Origin: a candidate division FCPU426 bacterium
GTDB lineage: Bacteria > Oederibacteriota > Muellerivitia > Muellerivitales > Muellerivitaceae
DNA length: 64,000 bases
Reading direction: 5' to 3'
NCBI GenBank assembly: GCA_963738405.1
Contig: CAVTWJ010000004.1
Coordinates: forward strand, 1 to 64,000
The notes under the pieces are model-generated. The model saw nothing but the letters and a program-made list of their open reading frames with translations. It was not told where the DNA came from and searched no databases. The position numbers and the translations under genes were made by a program. Shown one piece after another: positions 1 through 54,420 of the stretch. Each line of letters starts with the position of its first letter. Within the stretch, counting starts at the first letter, position 1.

Positions 1-4
1 CCAG

Positions 5-41
5 CCTGCACATGGCCCTCCCAAAAAGGATGGTGTGCAAC
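5..41 (+). repeat. 37-bp direct repeat, copy 1 (CCTGCACATGGCCCTCCCAAAAAGGATGGTGTGCAAC)
   Basis: Identical to copies at 777-813 and 1193-1229; imperfect dyad TGCACA..CCT / AGG..TGTGCA. Confidence 0.97.
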
Positions 42-144
42 TGTATTTTTGGCAATATGGGCAAATGTTGCTGCTGGTTATTACATCGGAAAAGGCGAGG
101 ACTGGGCGATTGATAAGGTCTTGGACAATGCACATTTACATTAG
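42..144 (+). pseudogene. 3' fragment of a gene (…VFLAIWANVAAGYYIGKGEDWAIDKVLDNAHLH*), possibly a polymorphic-toxin C-terminus
   Basis: Open frame 1 ends at TAG 142-144, 13 bp before the next ATG; no in-frame ATG after the repeat. Confidence 0.4.
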
Positions 145-157
145 CGCAAGGTAAACA

Positions 158-748
158 ATGAAGACGATGGACCGTAACTCATTAACCATTAGGCCCTGTT
201 CTTATTTGCTCTTTTTTGAGTTATTGGTTTTTGCATTATTTCTTTTATCTTTGTTCCTAATGGGACGAATTACAACAAATGATTCGGATTTTATGATGTT
301 TGTTTTGTCTCAGGTTTGCTTTTATCCGTTTTTGGGATTTATAGCTAACAGCTTATTTAATAGACCGTCGTATGTTTTCCATGAGACTGGATTTAGTTAC
401 GCCACGTCACCTTTTATGAAAGATGTGAAAAAATATAAAACTATAAACTGGGAATCGGTTGATCGAGTAGTCACTTGGGACTTGGGGTCGTTTGGTTTTT
501 GGACCTTTATTTTTAGTGGCCAAAGGAAGTTTACCTTTGGTTGGATCATACCGGAATATTTTGAGCTTCTTCAATTTGTTTACTCAAAAGCAAAAAACGC
601 AGATATCGATGAACGGACAAAAGAATTCCAATCGGAAAAGGTGATAAAAAAGCTTAAAAAACGCAGGACGTTTATTGATTGGGGAATGGTTGTTGCGTTT
701 CTTTTGCTGATTCTTTCTCTCCATTTTGAGTTTGGCGTAAATTTTTAA
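158..748 (+). CDS. AT-rich membrane protein (about 3 TM; possibly immunity-like)
   Basis: 196-aa ORF with hydrophobic segments; AAGG upstream. Confidence 0.7.
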   Translation: MKTMDRNSLTIRPCSYLLFFELLVFALFLLSLFLMGRITTNDSDFMMFVLSQVCFYPFLGFIANSLFNRPSYVFHETGFSYATSPFMKDVKKYKTINWESVDRVVTWDLGSFGFWTFIFSGQRKFTFGWIIPEYFELLQFVYSKAKNADIDERTKEFQSEKVIKKLKKRRTFIDWGMVVAFLLLILSLHFEFGVNF

Positions 749-776
749 TAAGGTTTTTGTACTTGAGGATTATGTT

Positions 777-813
777 CCTGCACATGGCCCTCCCAAAAAG
801 GATGGTGTGCAAC
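777..813 (+). repeat. 37-bp direct repeat, copy 2
   Basis: Exact match to 5-41. Confidence 0.97.
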
Positions 814-817
814 GACC

Positions 818-1114
818 ATGTACGTTGACCACCGCAACCACGTTTTGGACGTAATCGCCGGAGGAGAGGGAACCGTTGACCATACCGCCGTCTACCCTAG
901 GGAAGTCCTCAAGAAGGCTTTGGAACTAGACGCTTCTGGAATCATCTTGAGCCACGTCCACCCCGGAGGAAGCCTTGAAGCCTCAGAGGGTGACCGCCAG
1001 CTCACACGCCAGATTGTCACCGCTTGCCGTGCGCTTGGAATCACCGTCCATGACCACGTTATCGTGACCCATGAGGGCCACTTTTCTTTCCGACAAGCCG
1101 GGCTTTTGGCTTAA
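818..1114 (+). pseudogene. radC: N-terminally truncated RadC/JAB-domain protein
   Basis: GTVD..AVYPREV, SHVHPGG...S..D and HDHVIV motifs present; the frame begins mid-domain at the repeat junction and lacks the upstream Glu-containing segment. Confidence 0.85.
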
Positions 1115-1142
1115 CAAGGAATTCAAAATTTACTAGAAGCGG

Positions 1143-1176
1143 AGCCCTGGCCACCAGGCCGGGGCTTTCAGCTTTT
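1143..1176 (+). terminator. putative intrinsic terminator
   Basis: AGCCCTGGCC-acca-GGCCGGGGCT followed by T-rich tail, after radC fragment. Confidence 0.5.
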
Positions 1177-1192
1177 GAGGGAAATCAAAAAA

Positions 1193-1229
1193 CCTGCACA
1201 TGGCCCTCCCAAAAAGGATGGTGTGCAAC
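1193..1229 (+). repeat. 37-bp direct repeat, copy 3
   Basis: Exact match to 5-41. Confidence 0.97.
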
Positions 1230-1242
1230 TCAAAGTCCCGAC

Positions 1243-1575
1243 ATGTTATTGGCTTTGAGGGAAAGGGACGGCAAGTTTCTCGTCGATTTGCGGGAAACGT
1301 GGATAAGAAATGAAGCAGAGTATTTTGAACTGAATGGAAAACTCGAAGTGTTTCCCACTCCAACTGGCAAAGAAGACGAGACATACGAATCCGCGCGTTG
1401 GATAATTCTAGGAAAAGGGGTTATGGCGAAATATTGCAAAATGAACAAAGAATTAAATGAAACAATGCAACAGGCCAAAAGATTTTTAACGAACGAAGAA
1501 ATCGAAAAAATTAAAGCGGTTTTGAATGAAGTGTTTCCCGGGGAATTAAGCCCCCGGCAGGAAGAGATTCACTAA
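1243..1575 (+). CDS. hypothetical protein, probably a 5'-truncated fragment
   Basis: Frame is open back into the repeat (TQSPD-M); no clear RBS. Confidence 0.5.
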   Translation: MLLALRERDGKFLVDLRETWIRNEAEYFELNGKLEVFPTPTGKEDETYESARWIILGKGVMAKYCKMNKELNETMQQAKRFLTNEEIEKIKAVLNEVFPGELSPRQEEIH

Positions 1576-1583
1576 GATTTGGT

Positions 1584-1611
1584 TGTTCACGATGGGGAGC
1601 CAGATTGGACA
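1584..1611 (+). repeat. 28-bp palindromic site (TGTTCACGATG GGGAGC CAGATTGGACA)
   Basis: Variant of consensus TGTCCACGACG GGGACC CGTCGTGGACA. Confidence 0.8.
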
Positions 1612-1644
1612 ATAATTTTAGGATTTTTAACAAGGAGGTGAAAA

Positions 1645-2067
1645 ATGTTGCGTTCTATACCATTTCTTTTATTCGACGGTAACTGCGCGGAGGCGATGAC
1701 GTTCTACCGCTCCTGCCTAGGAGGAGAACTGACAATTCTTAAACTAGGGGATTCCCCCATGAAGGACCTTTTGCCCAAGGAGAAACACCAACGAACCATC
1801 AACGCCAACCTGAAAAGCGGGTACATTGAGATATCCGCCTCGGATTGGATGGCCTCGCCCACTTATGACCCTCATCCCGGCGATACCACCGCCATCTTCG
1901 TCATCGGCGAGGGATATGATGAGTTAAAAGCGGTTTTCGACAAACTTTCCAACGGCGCGGAAAAGGAAAAATACCAGGACTTGCATGACCTGCCCTTCGG
2001 GACCTATGGACAGTTTACGGACCGCTATGGGGTTCATTGGATTTTCAAAGGGGACAAGAAGGCTTAA
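1645..2067 (+). CDS. VOC/PhnB-like glyoxalase family protein
   Basis: PFLLFDGNCAEAMTFY…YGQFTDRYGVHW; AGGAGG RBS. Confidence 0.9.
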   Translation: MLRSIPFLLFDGNCAEAMTFYRSCLGGELTILKLGDSPMKDLLPKEKHQRTINANLKSGYIEISASDWMASPTYDPHPGDTTAIFVIGEGYDELKAVFDKLSNGAEKEKYQDLHDLPFGTYGQFTDRYGVHWIFKGDKKA

Positions 2068-2107: not shown

Positions 2108-2222
2108 AAGCAAAATGGATAATGGCAGCCTGACCTCAATGTCCAATAACGATAAGGTAACTTTGCCAGCTGTGTAAGCCGAGTAGATAAAAAAAGTTGA
2201 TAGAATTCAATCGAGGCTGGAA

Positions 2223-3539
2223 ATGGAATCCCCGCAGACAAACGCGCATCCGAAAGCGCTCCTGTTTTCGGTCAGAACGCCCAAGGTAACTGATGCCGAA
2301 GCGATGGAATCGATGATCGAGCTCGAACGGCTGGTGACGACCTTGGGTTACGAGGTGACCGGAACTATGTCCCAGCGGCAACCCAGCACATCAGGGGTCA
2401 CGGTGGTGGGTGAGGGAAAACTGATGGAACTCGCCCAACTCACCGGCGGAAAGGGCCGCCGGGATAGGATCAAGGGGAACACCGAAGCGCCGCAACCGGC
2501 GCCAGTCCCGGCCTCGGCTCCCGAAGGACCCGCGATGGTCGCTTTTGACTGCGATTTGAGCCCGTCCCAGATACGGAACGTCGAAGAAGCTTTGGGAGTT
2601 CCGGTGCTTGATCGCACTGGCGTGATCATCGAAATCTTCAACCGGCACGCGAAGACCCGGGCGGCTCGTCTCCAGGTCGATATCGCGCGCCAAACTTATC
2701 AGGCTCCCCGTCTCAGGGATACGGGGGTAGGGAAGGAACGCCAGTCTGGCCGAGGATCCGGGGAAACAATCATCGAGACGGAAAAGCGCAAAGTCCGCGA
2801 CCGTCTGGCTGAGCTGAGGCACGAGTTAGAAGCGGTTCAAAGAGAAGAGGAGCATCGCCGGTTAAAACGCGCGGAACTGCTCGGCGCCGCGCTGGTGGGC
2901 TACACGAATGCCGGAAAATCATCCCTCATGCGGGCGCTGACCGGCAGCGACGTCCTGGTGGAGGACAAACTCTTCGCGACCTTGGATACGACCATACGCG
3001 CCCTACAACCAGAGACCCAGCCGAGAATCCTGATCACCGATACGGTGGGTTTTATCCACAAGCTTCCACACGATCTGGTGGCGTCCTTCCGCTCCACGCT
3101 GGATGAGGCCCGCGGCGCCGCCCTGCTGCTTTACGTGGTGGACGCCGCTGACCGCAACTTTCGTTCCCAGCTCGCGGTGGTTCGGGAAGTCTTGGGTGAG
3201 ATTGGCGCCGACAAAACCCCCTATCTTCTCGTTCTCAATAAGGCCGACTGCTTGAGCGAATGGCAGAAGCGGGTTCTCGGGGCGGAGTATCCAGACGCGG
3301 TTTTAACCTCGACCCGCAGTCCCGAGGACATGCGGGTCGTCAGTGAACGCATTATTCATTTTTTCGAGAAAGACATGATCGAAAAGGAGATTCTCGTTCC
3401 CTATAAAGCCCAAGGTGTCATCAGCGAAATGCGTTTGAATATGAAAATCTTGAAGGAGAGCTTTTCCGAAGATGGCGTTCTACTTCTTGTTCGCGCTCGT
3501 CCGATTGACCTTCAGCGCTTGAGTAAAATGATGAAGTAG
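2223..3539 (+). CDS. hflX: GTPase HflX
   Basis: GYTNAGKS, EDKLFATLD, DTVGFI and NKAD motifs. Confidence 0.95.
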   Translation: MESPQTNAHPKALLFSVRTPKVTDAEAMESMIELERLVTTLGYEVTGTMSQRQPSTSGVTVVGEGKLMELAQLTGGKGRRDRIKGNTEAPQPAPVPASAPEGPAMVAFDCDLSPSQIRNVEEALGVPVLDRTGVIIEIFNRHAKTRAARLQVDIARQTYQAPRLRDTGVGKERQSGRGSGETIIETEKRKVRDRLAELRHELEAVQREEEHRRLKRAELLGAALVGYTNAGKSSLMRALTGSDVLVEDKLFATLDTTIRALQPETQPRILITDTVGFIHKLPHDLVASFRSTLDEARGAALLLYVVDAADRNFRSQLAVVREVLGEIGADKTPYLLVLNKADCLSEWQKRVLGAEYPDAVLTSTRSPEDMRVVSERIIHFFEKDMIEKEILVPYKAQGVISEMRLNMKILKESFSEDGVLLLVRARPIDLQRLSKMMK

Positions 3540-3619
3540 TGTCCCGCGGTGTGTGCCGCCCTTCAATTTAAAATAAAGAGTTGGGGAGAGCGGACAATTG
3601 TATTGATCCGCTTTCGGTT

Positions 3620-3641
3620 GTAATCTTACTGGTAAGATTAC
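3620..3641. promoter_or_regulatory. palindromic operator of the TA operon
   Basis: GTAATCTTAC-tg-GTAAGATTAC immediately upstream of the antitoxin RBS. Confidence 0.65.
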
Positions 3642-3654
3642 TCGGAGGTAACCT

Positions 3655-3915
3655 ATGACCATCGCAACCACAAAGCTTTCCTCGAAGGGTCAAGTCGTTA
3701 TTCCTGAATCCATCCGCAAAAGTTTGCGCCTCAAAGAGGGGGATCAGTTTGTCGTGATGGGCCAGGGAGATTCGGTGATCTTCAAAGCCATTACCCCGCC
3801 TTCGTTGAGTCAACTTGACAGCCTGCTGGCCGCCGCGCGAAAGCAGGCGCGTGCTGCCGGATTACGCCCAGCAGACGTGAAGGCCGCCATTGCCCGCGTT
3901 CGGCGCGGTAAATGA
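3655..3915 (+). CDS. AbrB/MazE/SpoVT family antitoxin
   Basis: TKLSSKGQVVIPESIRKSLRLKEGD. Confidence 0.9.
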   Translation: MTIATTKLSSKGQVVIPESIRKSLRLKEGDQFVVMGQGDSVIFKAITPPSLSQLDSLLAAARKQARAAGLRPADVKAAIARVRRGK

Positions 3916-4313
3916 AACGAGTTGTTGTCATAGACACAAATGTTCTTGTCTCTGGTTTTTTCTGGATGGGGACCCCTTACCAAGTCCTCAAATCCTGGGA
4001 ACATGGTGATTTCAAGTTATTGGTGTCCCTGGAAATCCTCGAGGAATACCGCCGCGTTATGGAAGACTTTTCCAAGGGGCATCCTGGCGTTGAAGTTGAG
4101 CCCTTCCTGGAATTAATCAGATTGAATTGCGAAATGGTGAACGCTAAGCCGGTTCGAGGCATTTGCAAAGACCCCGATGATGATAAATTTATCGCGGCCG
4201 CCCTGGCGGGAAGAGCTGAATTCATCGTCTCGGGCGATAAGGCCCTGTTGGAGGTTGGAACCTACCAAAATATTAAAATCATGAATCCGTCCCGCTTTTT
4301 GAAAAACCTATAA
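3912..4313 (+). CDS. PIN-domain toxin (PIN_3 type)
   Basis: VIDTNVLVS, DPDDDKF and IVSGDKALL motifs; ATGA overlap with the antitoxin. Confidence 0.9.
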   Translation: MKRVVVIDTNVLVSGFFWMGTPYQVLKSWEHGDFKLLVSLEILEEYRRVMEDFSKGHPGVEVEPFLELIRLNCEMVNAKPVRGICKDPDDDKFIAAALAGRAEFIVSGDKALLEVGTYQNIKIMNPSRFLKNL

Positions 4314-4321
4314 GTTTCTGC

Positions 4322-4349
4322 TGTTCACGGCAGGTGCCCCGATTCCCAT
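4322..4349 (+). repeat. degenerate 28-bp site
   Basis: TGTTCACGGCA GGTGCC CCGATT…; starts 8 bp after the toxin stop. Confidence 0.4.
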
Positions 4350-9394: not shown

Positions 9395-12300
9395 ATGAAA
9401 CGTCGTTTAATCGTAGTGTTTTTTATTTCTCTGACCTTCCCCTTTTTCTTATTGGGCCTCGGGCCATTGAAGCCTGCCCCGCCGAGCGGTTCCAATCTGA
9501 AATTAAACGCCAACTACGGCCAATTGCCCTTGGCCTTTGAGCCCAACCAGGGCCAAACCGATTCCCAAGTTCAATACCTTTCCCATGGTGGCGGCTATAC
9601 CCTTTTTCTCACCTCGGGGGAGGCGGTTTTGGTTTTGCAAAAGCCACAGACCGGTCCCCATTCGAAATTTTCGATGGCGAAAGAAATGAAGAAAGGCGGA
9701 AGGGTTTCAATCCCATCCGCGCCTGTTTCCCAAACACCGCCGGTAACGTTGCGAATGAAAATGGTGGGAGCCCAATCGGGCCGCGCCTTCCAGGGGATGG
9801 AACAACTTCCCGGAATCTCAAATTACCTGATCGGCAACGACCCTTCCAAGTGGCACACCCACGTTCCGCAATACGCAAAGGTACAAGCGGAGGAAATTTA
9901 CCCCGGCGTGGACATGGTCTATTACGGCAACCAGAGACGGTTGGAATACGACTTCGTGGTGAAACCTGGGGCGGACCCCAAATCCATCCATTTAAAGTAC
10001 GAGGGGGCCAAGGGCTCTGCGGTAAACGCGCAAGGGGACCTGGAACTTCAAGTCGATGGGGGCAAGGTGGCCTTTAAATCGCCCAAGGTCTATCAGGAAA
10101 GGGAAGGGCAGAGGACCGAAGTGAATGGGCATTACCGGATGGAACGAGACGGCGGGGTAGGTTTTGAGGTGAAGGATTACGATAAGACGAAGCCCCTGGT
10201 GATTGATCCCGTGTTGGACTATTCAACCTATTTGGGGGGGGATAATACGGATGGTGGCTTTGGCATCGCGGTGGACGGTAGCGGGGACGCCTATGTGACA
10301 GGTTACAGCGCATCCACGAATTTTCCGACGACCTCTGAGGCATTTCAAACGGCCTCGGAAGGCAGTGGTCAATCCGTTTTCGTCACCGAGCTAAACCCAA
10401 CCGGCACCGCCCTGGTTTATTCCACCTATTTGGGTGGGTCCAACTGTCCCTTTAATTCGTACAACTTCATTTCGAACGCTGGCTATAGCATCGGGGTGGA
10501 TGGAAGCGGGGACGCCTATGTGACGGGTTATACCTGTACCACTGATTTTCCTACAACTCCCGGGTCCTTTCAAACGGCTCCTGAGGGCGAATTCCAATTT
10601 GGCTTCGTGACGGAATTAAACCCCACCGGTACAGGTTTCGTTTATTCCACTTATTTAGGAAGCGATAGTAATAGCGAATGCTATGCCATCGCCGTGGATG
10701 GAAGCGGGGACGCCTATGTGACGGGATGGGCTTCCGGGACTTTCCCGACAACCTCCGGGGCCTTTATAACCTCCGGAAATGGGGCCTTTGTAACAAAGTT
10801 GAATGCTTCCGGAACGGGCCTGGTTTATTCCACTTTTTTGGGAGGCATTAGTAACGAAGGCAATGGAATCGCGGTGGACGGGAACGGTGACGCCTATGTG
10901 ACCGGTTGCACCGACGCAAATTTCCCGACGACCTCAGGAGCCTTTCAAACCAGCGATCCCGACACTAGTAAATTACATGCCTTTGTGACCGAGCTGAACC
11001 CAACCGGGTCGGCGCAGGTCTATTCCACCTATTTGGGAGGAACCGGTTATATCGAAAATACTGATATGGGCCCAGGAGACTTTGGCTTGGGCATCGCAGT
11101 AGACGGAAGCGGTGACGCCTATGTAACGGGTTACACCTTCGCCAACCATTTCCCCACGACTTCGGGTGCTTTTCAAATGAGCGACCCAGGAACGAGTGAT
11201 TCTCACGCCTTTGTGACCGAGTTGAACCCTACCGGGACGGCGCCGGTTTATTCCACCTATTTGGGAGGGAGCAACTACACGTATACCTCTTCCTGGGAAG
11301 ACGAAGCTTTCGGCATCGCGGTGGACGGGAACGGCGATGCCTATGTGACGGGCTTAACTTTGGCCACCAACTTTCCCACCACTGCGGGGGCTTTCCAAAT
11401 CAGCGATCCTAGTATTAACCAAGCCGCCTTTGTGACCGAGTTAAACTCAACCGGCTCGGCCCTTGCCTATTCTACTTTTTTGAGGGGCTACAATCCCGAC
11501 TGGGGCCAAAGCATCGCGTTGGATGGGAGCGGAAGTGTTTATGTGACGGGTTTAACCTATGGCATCAATTTCCCCACGACCTCGGGGGCCTTTCAAGCCA
11601 GCGCACCTGTTAGTGCTGGTGGGGACGCCTTTATCACCAAATTCGACGCTTCGGTTTTTTTAACTTCCACGCCGACCCTTACACCTACTAATACTATTAC
11701 CAACACATGTACACCCACTCTTTCCCCGTCCCCTTGTGTGGCCTGGGCCCGAAATGACGGAACGTTTTCCTCGGAATTTGCAGCTGGAGTTGCGATAGAC
11801 GGAAATGGGAATGTTTTCACGGCAGGTAGTTTCTTTACACCTGTTGATGGAATCCTCACTACTGAATATTCCAACTCTGGTTCATTTATCCGGGCCGTCA
11901 CATTTTGCGATGGGGCTGACGACATCGGTACAGCGATTACAACCGATTCTCTTGGAAATTTTTATGTTGGTGGCGCTTCGTACTCAAATGCGATTTTGGT
12001 GAAATACAATAGTATGGGTATTCACCAAAAGACGATTATGGTGGGTGGGGGGCAGGTGGCGGGAATTGCGGTGGACGGAGCTGGAAATTTATTTGTGACG
12101 GATGCCTATAACGGTTTTTTCACCATCAAATTTGACTCTTCGGGAAATTTAAAATGGATAAATACATACAACAGCGATCATTCCGACCAAAGCAATGGAA
12201 TAGCGCTGGACAGCGGTGGCAATGTATATGTTACGGGTTTTTCTGGAAGCGTGAGCCAAACTTGGCTTCGAACTTTCAAATTTGACACCAACGGGAATCC

Positions 12301-48501: not shown

Positions 48502-48577
48502 AAGGCCGGAGTTAATTATTGGGCGGGGATATAATCCTAAAGTGAATCATATCTCCTGTGATTTTAGCTTAAGGTGT

Positions 48578-48605
48578 TGTCCACGATGGGGAGCCATCGT
48601 GGACA
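48578..48605 (+). repeat. 28-bp palindromic site
   Basis: TGTCCACGATG GGGAGC CATCGTGGACA. Confidence 0.93.
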
Positions 48606-52434: not shown

Positions 52435-52690
52435 ATTTGGAGTGGGCGTCAAGGAACCAGTCGCCGGAAAATATCATGGTTGTATATAGGTGATATACTG
52501 GCCGCATTGAAAAACCCGGCAGTTGAAACGGGATATTAACGGCAGGGCGTTATTGAACGGGATGGTTATCGATGGAACCTGAAGTCCAATAATAAAAAAA
52601 CCGGGTCTGGTCCCACGCTCTCCAGCGTGGAACAGGGCTCAATTCACCGCAGAATTGAGCAGGGATTAACCATTATTAGTACGAGTTAGG

Positions 52691-52718
52691 TGTTCACGAT
52701 GGGGACCCGTCGTGGACA
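52691..52718 (+). repeat. 28-bp palindromic site
   Basis: TGTTCACGATG GGGACC CGTCGTGGACA. Confidence 0.93.
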
Positions 52719-52758
52719 GGTAACATGGATTGGGAAACATTGAAAGAGGATGTGAAGT

Positions 52759-53163: not shown

Positions 53164-53177
53164 AAAAGGAATTCTCT

Positions 53178-53205
53178 TGTCCACGACGGGGACCCGTCGT
53201 GGACA
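53178..53205 (+). repeat. 28-bp palindromic site (consensus)
   Basis: TGTCCACGACG GGGACC CGTCGTGGACA. Confidence 0.95.
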
Positions 53206-53248
53206 AAGAAAAAAGGCGTAAAGTGTTATCGGCAATAGGAGATCGAAA

Positions 53249-53584: not shown

Positions 53585-53648
53585 AACATTGTTAATTTTT
53601 CTCTCCAGTTTCTTAACCGATTTGAGGACCGTTTGGTTGAAGCTTGTT

Positions 53649-53676
53649 TGTCCACGACGGGGACCCATCGTGGACA
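53649..53676 (+). repeat. 28-bp palindromic site
   Basis: TGTCCACGACG GGGACC CATCGTGGACA. Confidence 0.95.
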
Positions 53677-53733
53677 GAAAAATAAAGTGTAAGTATTTCA
53701 TTTGGACGGTATTACGGGAAAAAGGATTAGAAT

Positions 53734-54267: not shown

Positions 54268-54282
54268 ACCAGATACTTAACC

Positions 54283-54310
54283 TGTCCACGACGGGGACCC
54301 GTCGTGGACA
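54283..54310 (+). repeat. 28-bp palindromic site (consensus)
   Basis: Exact match to 53178-53205. Confidence 0.95.
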
Positions 54311-54420
54311 GTCAGTACCACTGACTGTCTTATTCGAAAATGTTTCCCCGGAACTTTCTAGCTTTCTCAAAAAATTTTAGGGGAATGATAAACCTGTACT
54401 TACCTGGTAAAGTTACCCCC

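Follow-up and report, generated by a model that had tools for sequence, protein, structure and literature searches.

What kind of enzyme leaves identical 37-bp repeats of CRISPR type separated by pieces of foreign DNA the size of genes? This question is raised by the left end of the window, the 64-kb stretch of DNA analysed here, which is the first 64 kb of contig C4 of the draft genome G000 (23 contigs, 3.18 Mb). The repeat, CCTGCACATGGCCCTCCCAAAAAGGATGGTGTGCAAC, is present in three copies at window positions 5–41, 777–813 and 1193–1229, all on the + strand and identical over 37 nt, as a preliminary description of this DNA had stated. We consider it probable that these three copies make up the distal end of a CRISPR-type array, and that the array was written by a cas1-cas2 adaptation module that is horizontally mobile, lacks effectors and has a Cas1 of a lineage otherwise named mostly from Patescibacteria. 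The evidence for this reading comes from the repeats and inserts themselves, from the genes that stand beside the same repeat in related genomes, and from a comparison with other explanations.

The repeats and their gene-sized inserts

The first repeat copy, an exact CRISPR-type hairpin repeat, lies 4 bp from the contig start. It is followed by insert 1 (42–776, + strand, 735 bp, 36% G+C), which holds a complete open reading frame (ORF) for a 196-aa membrane protein of no known family (158–748). The exact second copy precedes insert 2 (814–1192, + strand, 379 bp, 55% G+C), which consists of the 3' 98 codons of radC (ORF 818–1114) and a terminator-like hairpin. The two inserts are unrelated and differ in composition, in agreement with the preliminary description. 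The third exact copy is the last one on contig C4, beyond which no additional copy was found at ≤9 mismatches; it is abutted by a 5'-truncated gene (1230–1601, + strand; ORF 1243–1575) that is either the oldest insert or the trailer. The window and its contig start at the same base, so that the assembly truncates the array, and the expectation that it runs on to the left of the window is borne out in this sense.

The 37-mer has the ends CCTGCAC...GTGCAAC and forms a bulged hairpin over positions 3–35, so that the partial dyad symmetry noted at the outset is present (RNA fold -12.9 kcal/mol, z -2.3; 5 of 200 shuffles fold as well); the commonest variant of the repeat elsewhere folds at -12.5 (z -3.1). 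An Rfam scan of window positions 1–2000, with E values up to 10, returned no CRISPR-DR and no other credible family. The repeat has sharp edges: no sequence is shared by the flanks of its 13 copies in G000, and no target duplication is visible around any of them, which is what had been described for the window.

We searched 32 genomes of the order with a degenerate 37-mer pattern at ≤2 mismatches and found about 110 copies in seven genomes of five genera (13 in G000, 2 in G002, 27 in G005, 18 in G006, 13 in G008, 10 in G011 and 27 in G025). The reversed pattern, used as a control, gave 0 matches in all 32, and chance occurrence is therefore excluded. Local clusters are co-oriented with one exception, solitary copies also exist, and between neighbouring copies in the seven genomes the start-to-start distance runs from 67 bp to 14 kb. 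In G000, searched at ≤9 mismatches, the copies fall into clusters on C4 (three copies), C12:144389–155823 (eight) and C23:2073 and 3917 (two), with start-to-start spacings of 67, 75 and 416–3459 bp. The repeat is present on five JGI metagenome contigs as well, and a pattern scan of IMG/VR gave 0 matches. Among the Logan contigs of one soil run, the 37-mer alone has a depth of 48.9, against 5–11 for its flanks.

The distances between neighbouring co-oriented repeats were measured for 59 intervals in the fetched loci, 58 of them distinct. They range from 30 to 14,100 bp with a median of 1288 bp; 51 of the 58 are at least 300 bp long and two are ≤50 bp. Regular 25–50-bp spacing was not found, nor was a run of normal spacing at any locus in the seven genomes. 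A few spacers of ordinary size do occur (30 and 38 bp in G000, and a repeat-36 bp-repeat unit in one contig from a soil run). The median G+C content of the intervals is 44.6%, compared with 52.2% for the G000 genome.

The inserts are fragments of longer DNAs, and insert 2 is the clearest example. Its ORF has a Pfam RadC match over positions 26–120 of 121, and the insert as a whole is 99–100% identical to G005:C12:17627–18005, G005:C8:88714–89092 and G006:C183:34776–35154, relatives that lie in a 2.0–2.4-kb segment found twice in G005 and once in G006. The native radC is intact there (164 codons in G005:C12; an intact gene is present in two same-genus genomes), and insert 2 begins at about codon 65. 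Its native flanks in G005 and G006 are the rest of radC upstream and a second hairpin downstream. Soil and peat contigs carry these native flanks too: Logan contigs from three soil runs have the same radC flank upstream, and those of one run also have the downstream flank. The segment starts right after a repeat in G005:C8 and lies in the first interval after the leader in G006:C183; given these placements, G000, G005 and G006 hold pieces of one donor in three sizes. Judged by these alignments, insert 2 is a fragment of a longer mobile segment.

The DNA that follows repeat 3 is likewise a partial gene. Positions 1230–1601 are 80% identical to G012:C18:53517–53887 and correspond to the last 116 codons (residues 125–240) of a 241-aa ORF that is whole in G012, and the N-terminal half of that ORF was not found in G000. 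The earlier statement that the right-hand junctions of the repeats cut through coding sequence is thus correct for the radC insert and for the DNA after repeat 3. The 3' gene tail that had been read at the start of insert 1 was not confirmed: insert 1 has no DNA relative in 31 family genomes, and its 196-aa protein has no homologue in 99 phylum genomes. Neither insert 1 nor the 2.4-kb radC segment gave a match in plasmid and phage collections.

Other loci show the same kind of cut. A 2.47-kb element, complete at C13:8998–11475 of G000, has two truncated copies, which break off exactly at a repeat at the internal positions 9588 and 9680 and are oppositely oriented. G011, a member of another genus than G025, has a 971-bp insert (L074 3851–4821) that contains, inverted and 100% identical, the 885-bp insert found in G025 at L063 696–1580; the G025 insert is exactly 43 bp shorter at each end. 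Among the G025 inserts, several represent overlapping cuts, each different, of a single donor, and two have the native cas2-leader junction as their right end. Pieces of one donor, overlapping or nested, are thus found with differing ends in separate arrays. Such cut points may be DNA ends that were made by other enzymes and then became insert ends.

The insert ends also carry a signature. Among 115 unique insert ends, with both sides read inward, position 3 is G in two, where about 27 would be expected (p 5e-8), and position 5 is T in 54 (p 2e-5). Left and right ends show the same bias when they are tallied separately. This symmetric preference is compatible with one enzyme treating both ends alike, and with inserts entering in either orientation. 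ORFs of at least 80 aa run mainly with the repeat in 35 of 51 inserts and against it in 15, with one tie (binomial p 0.007, for inserts that are not independent of one another); selection after insertion may account for this co-orientation. A common motif on the donor side of the cut was also considered, and none was seen by eye in the six readable donor flanks.

Several observations on the content of these regions are recorded here in their own right. The 2.47-kb element (G000:C13:8998–11475; C12:156185–158608) encodes a TPR protein and an rve transposase, and TPR-gene fragments of that family abut or adjoin repeats in G025 and G000. The DNA beyond the intact ends of its two truncated copies (X and Y) was considered as a single locus, an idea that was rejected when the two proved unrelated. 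C-terminal fragments of RHS-repeat genes, often followed by genes for Rce1/CAAX-type membrane proteases, recur in inserts (L009 11566–12537 and 14171–16627; L010 1–1017; L062 13443–16247), an arrangement known from orphan toxin-immunity cassettes. Over its first 4.3 kb the window is a mosaic, and the nearest relative differs from one segment to the next: the hflX-like GTPase gene at 2171–3558 has a second copy, 94% identical, at G000:C11:81948–83335, and a 93% copy of this segment lies 2.5 kb beyond the last repeat of a long G025:C3 array, while the antitoxin/PIN pair at 3575–4328 has a 94% copy at C6:7899–8650.

A cas1-cas2 module ends in the repeat

The preliminary description had proposed that a repeat-duplicating, Cas1-like integrase captures several hundred base pairs of foreign DNA. 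The genes beside the repeat in related genomes agree with this proposal. A Pfam search of 150 ORFs near repeats gave six Cas1 matches, and in G005, G008, G011 and G025 cas1 and a divergent cas2 lie 23 bp upstream of the same 37-mer; the same cas1 is also found in G006, where it lies at the end of a contig. The module spans 1506 bp and is made up of 74 bp, cas1 (346 aa), a 111-aa ORF that overlaps the cas1 stop, 23 bp and the 37-mer. Beyond the final base of the repeat the loci are no longer similar, so the 37-mer is the exact 3' end of the module. The module is found across four genera and in multiple copies; identity to the module at G025:C16 is 99.8% at G025:C15, 99.7% at G025:C3 (where cas1 carries an in-frame stop), 97.4% at G008:C5 and 93.5% at G005:C1. 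Arrays lie downstream of it at five of six loci, and a conserved leader, consisting of the 23 bp and the end of cas2, precedes the first repeat at all eight aligned loci. Upstream of the module each locus has genes of its own, with no cas gene among them.

This Cas1, with 93–100% amino acid identity, is encoded in five of the seven genomes that have the repeat (G005, G006, G008, G011 and G025) and in none of the 25 that do not; in the phylum it is found in 5 of 99 genomes. It is a genuine Cas1 by several measures (TIGR00287, 251 bits against a cut-off of 71.7; PF01867, E 3e-68; alignment over 325 residues to the solved Cas1 4n06). The search for relatives of this Cas1 gave 1090; the closest outside the family are 70–82% identical, and those with names are Patescibacteria, Parcubacteria or Nomurabacteria. 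None of the Cas1 subtype models reached its cut-off, and the best scores were those of I-G, I-D and I-C, which are class 1 models. The likeness to class 2 repeats (V-F, VI-B) that was first suggested is therefore not upheld. Repeats of 36–37 nt are known from the class 1 types I-C, I-D, I-G and III.

The 111-aa partner gave no direct Pfam, NCBIfam or PDB match. A profile search collected 65 relatives, and 29 of the 60 that were aligned match Pfam Cas2 (PF09827); the profile of the family matches the PDB Cas2 chains 3exc, 2ivy and 4qr0 with E values of 4e-6 to 5e-4. An AlphaFold 2 (AF2) model built from 60 sequences has a predicted local distance difference test (pLDDT) score of 88, and its top fold matches are Cas2 structures, with template modelling (TM) scores of 0.56–0.86. 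The ESM atlas returned three Cas2 clusters at 0.88–0.89, which we take as a lead only. By profile and predicted fold, the partner is Cas2. The ratio of nonsynonymous to synonymous substitution rates (dN/dS) between G025 and G005, a single genome pair, is 0.09 for cas1 and 0.27 for cas2.

No Cas3, Cas5, RAMP, Cas6 or Cas9 was found above cut-off in G011 (99% complete) or G025 (96%); Cas12 and Cas13 were not searched for. In G005, G006 and G008 a type I system is present elsewhere in the genome. A second dispersed palindrome, CTGTCCACGACGGGGACCCTTCGTGGACA, forms a hairpin that is present in many genomes of the family and with which the cas1-cas2 module starts, on its left, in G025 and G008. It lies in the window at 2079–2107, 48577–48605, 52690–52719, 53177–53206, 53648–53677 and 54282–54311, and G000 has 43 matches to it (≤4 mismatches, both strands counted), clustered on C4, C6, C11 and C23.

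G000 itself retains traces of the module. Its contig C5 opens with 89 bp that match the module start and run off the contig, so that a gap in the assembly may hide its cas1-cas2 pair. At C23:3917 the repeat is preceded by the last 33–70 bp of the module, and the one at C12:145645 by the last 7 bp of the leader, with the end of an IS3 element following. The only assembled Cas1 of G000 lies on C23, at a distance of 63 kb, within a type III locus whose regular array has 35 copies of a different 37-bp repeat and whose Cas10-sized gene is present in one of the 32 order genomes, G000 alone. Attribution of the window repeats to this type III and reverse transcriptase locus was rejected on both grounds, the different repeat and the restriction of the Cas10-like gene to one genome. 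The locus itself (G000:C23:56000–75999; L012) encodes a separate reverse transcriptase, Cas1, Cas2, Cas6, a Card1-type CARF nuclease, RAMP proteins and a B116-like protein.

Proposed mechanism and alternative explanations

In the mechanism that we favour, a Cas1-Cas2 integrase would attack both edges of the 37-bp repeat beside the cas2-proximal leader, a DNA fragment would be joined at that repeat, and gap repair would duplicate the repeat. Unlike in canonical systems, the fragment would not be measured or trimmed to about 35 bp, and insert lengths would therefore span 30 bp to several kb (median about 1.3 kb). They would be gene fragments, whole genes or pieces of insertion sequences (ISs), in either orientation; in the window, such products would be an AT-rich piece of foreign DNA 735 bp long, 379 bp from the interior of a mobile segment that bears radC, and a gene truncated at its 5' end. 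We infer that Cas1-Cas2 would catalyse the insertions and that its length ruler would have been lost, just as we infer any biological role of the arrays. A broader idea, which we put forward as tentative and doubtful, is that of a CRISPR-derived platform for gene capture: a mobile, effector-less Cas1-Cas2 that has lost its spacer ruler would write gene-sized foreign DNA into arrays, where co-oriented genes could be expressed and kept. Acquisition would then be integron-like, would be active outside the tiny-genome Patescibacteria, and would seed new arrays by capture of the module's own cas1-cas2-leader unit.

A number of findings weigh against an array written by such a module. In G000 no cas1-cas2 pair is assembled beside any of the 13 repeats, where only the 89-bp module start and the leader remnants are found. 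Copies of the repeat are spread across many loci, some of them solitary or 25 kb apart, and single arrays contain mixed repeat variants. Covariation in the hairpin is not significant: shuffles score as well, and in no pair do both partners change. Both the interval counts and the insert-end counts come from related genomes that are not phylogenetically independent. No RNA run is among the listed runs that contain the sampled words. In a trio of overlapping G025 inserts the cut points are the ends of an IS200-like element, which could be a sign of events driven by a transposase. Intervals have secondarily received IS3 and Y1 elements, and some long intervals carry housekeeping-type genes (qNOR; tgt and queA; dnaX). 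These long intervals may be chromosome between separate arrays, or products of recombination between repeats, and not single inserts.

Several of these points are what one would expect if the array were an ordinary CRISPR array that was later disrupted by insertion of IS or other mobile elements, by recombination between 37-bp repeats at different loci and by repeat-anchored deletions. IS3 and Y1-DnaA_C elements with intact ends do lie inside intervals, 30-, 36- and 38-bp spacers exist, and the mixed variants and housekeeping genes fit as well. Against this, intervals of ≤50 bp number two of 58, with no normally spaced run in seven genomes. Moreover, inserts such as the 379-bp radC piece have no mobile-element ends but are internal fragments of unrelated DNA that stop precisely at the repeat on either side, and recombination within repeats would not be expected to give the two ends of an insert a symmetric bias. 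We therefore regard disruption of an ordinary array as unlikely. A quite different possibility is that the 37-mer is a hairpin of the repetitive extragenic palindrome (REP), miniature inverted-repeat transposable element (MITE) or IS-end kind, moved or cut by an HUH Y1 transposase (the product of a Y1_Tnp+DnaA_C gene, or an IS200-like TnpA), with cas1-cas2 as a passenger. The repeat is indeed a dispersed hairpin with Y1 genes beside some copies, and three G025 inserts have ends that coincide with those of an IS200-like element. Only 6 of 22 Y1-DnaA_C loci, however, have a repeat copy within about 1 kb, and the gene is present in 20 of the 32 genomes, many of them without the repeat. Removal of the repeat does not rejoin contiguous genes, as it would for the dispersed MITE or IS end envisaged in the preliminary description; the two sides are unrelated, and the native radC context is continuous on both sides. 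The repeat is instead tied to cas1 (five of seven genomes with the repeat, none of 25 without) and is the exact 3' end of the module. This explanation is accordingly very improbable. The Y1_Tnp+DnaA_C gene was also considered as the partner of the repeat and was rejected, being multi-copy and mostly not adjacent. It encodes a fusion of Y1 with a DnaA_C-type helix-turn-helix, about 315 aa long, and is found at L009 2068–3021 and 7972–8919 (G000:C12) and at many loci in G005, G008 and G024, with 36 matches in G005 and 21 in G008; eight of the G008 copies have two in-frame TGA codons each and are otherwise full-length.

Integron-like cassettes, in which the 37-mer would be the site of a site-specific recombinase and the units would be excised and re-inserted as circles, would explain the co-oriented arrays of 0.5–3-kb units, the prevalence of ORFs that run with the repeat (35 of 51 inserts), and the presence of identical units in different genera, one of them inverted. 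Against this, the integrase model TIGR02249 was above its cut-off of 265 bits in none of five genomes (best 67 bits), many units start mid-gene, and no recombinase except cas1 recurs beside the repeats. The 37-bp site, with its ends ..AAC-3' and 5'-CC.., is also the reverse of the attC layout. We regard this explanation as very improbable. Lastly, chimeric joins through a collapsed ordinary CRISPR repeat, or assembly walks from spacer to protospacer, could in principle have produced the pattern. All three G000 clusters are near contig ends in a 23-contig draft, and the window's own repeat-insert junctions are reproduced by no independent read set: none of the Logan contigs searched contains them, and no sequencing run contains >22% of the sampled words. 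The same layout, however, recurs in six other genomes and on the five JGI contigs, with arrays deep inside contigs of 0.4–1.6 Mb. A 3572-bp insert with both of its repeats is identical in two metagenome records, and over 3000 bp in G002:C16, although these three are perhaps not independent samples. An assembler would not produce a symmetric end motif, and the chimeras that were raised as a possible refutation at the outset are extremely unlikely. Our results are thus best accommodated by the effector-less cas1-cas2 module.

Significance and comparison with known systems

Cas1-Cas2 is seen as a molecular ruler by which pieces some 30–40 bp long are stored for immunity. If the reading given here is true, it would provide a natural case of an integrase freed from length control, with kb-sized inserts and no interference genes; it would connect CRISPR adaptation, casposons and gene capture of the integron type, and would account for "orphan" cas1-cas2 pairs. 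CRISPR finders discard such arrays for their spacer length, and the arrays are therefore probably under-counted. The locus adds a case in soil and peat bacteria with 3–5-Mb genomes, a near-identical module (96–100% protein identity) across four genera, donor context for one insert, and a symmetric end motif that can be examined biochemically. An enzyme of this sort could also attract interest as a means to insert long DNA. A search of the full-text literature, whose coverage excluded subscription journals and supplements, found no description of kb-sized CRISPR spacers; in one preprint (10.1101/2024.03.08.584096) the passages that matched deal with ordinary arrays.

The system shares with canonical CRISPR adaptation a genuine Cas1 and Cas2, a 37-bp, partly palindromic direct repeat right after a conserved cas2-proximal sequence, exact, sharp-edged repeats on both sides of every insert, and a few 30–38-bp spacers. 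It differs in that 56 of the 58 intervals exceed 50 bp (median about 1.3 kb, maximum 14 kb) and the inserts carry genes, in that no effector genes lie beside the module and the leader is 23 bp plus the end of cas2, and in that the module is multi-copy and nearly identical across genera, with arrays at several scattered loci. By its parts it is a CRISPR adaptation module, but of the features that define CRISPR loci it lacks two, namely short spacers at regular intervals and effectors linked to the array. In its proposed working it would resemble Cas1-Cas2 integration or the action of a casposase.

As is proposed here, casposons use a Cas1-family integrase to put kb-sized DNA into a defined site, where the target is duplicated. 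They are characterized by a 14–15-bp target duplication, a family B polymerase and terminal inverted repeats. Here, in contrast, no family B polymerase was found among the 150, 19 and 17 ORFs scanned near repeats and modules, the repeats are direct and not inverted, there are no terminal inverted repeats, Cas2 is present, the inserted DNAs are mutually unrelated, and it is a 37-bp CRISPR-type repeat that is duplicated, not a 14–15-bp target. With integron cassette arrays the locus shares co-oriented, structured repeats between 0.3–3-kb units of foreign, often AT-rich genes, and clusters without the enzyme gene occur in both, as in the clusters of attC sites lacking integron-integrases (CALINs). 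The attC site is 57–141 bp long and has the layout RYYYAAC...GTTRRRY, whereas the site here is shorter and differently laid out, no IntI was found in five genomes, the units are often gene fragments, and the enzyme is Cas1-Cas2. The systems of REPs and their associated Y1 HUH transposases (REP-associated tyrosine transposases, RAYTs) likewise have an imperfect palindrome of about 37 nt dispersed in the genome, with Y1 genes nearby in places. The repeat studied here differs from them in its low copy number, its co-oriented clusters and its flanks, which are not contiguous after removal of the element, and its strict co-occurrence is with cas1 and not with a Y1 gene.

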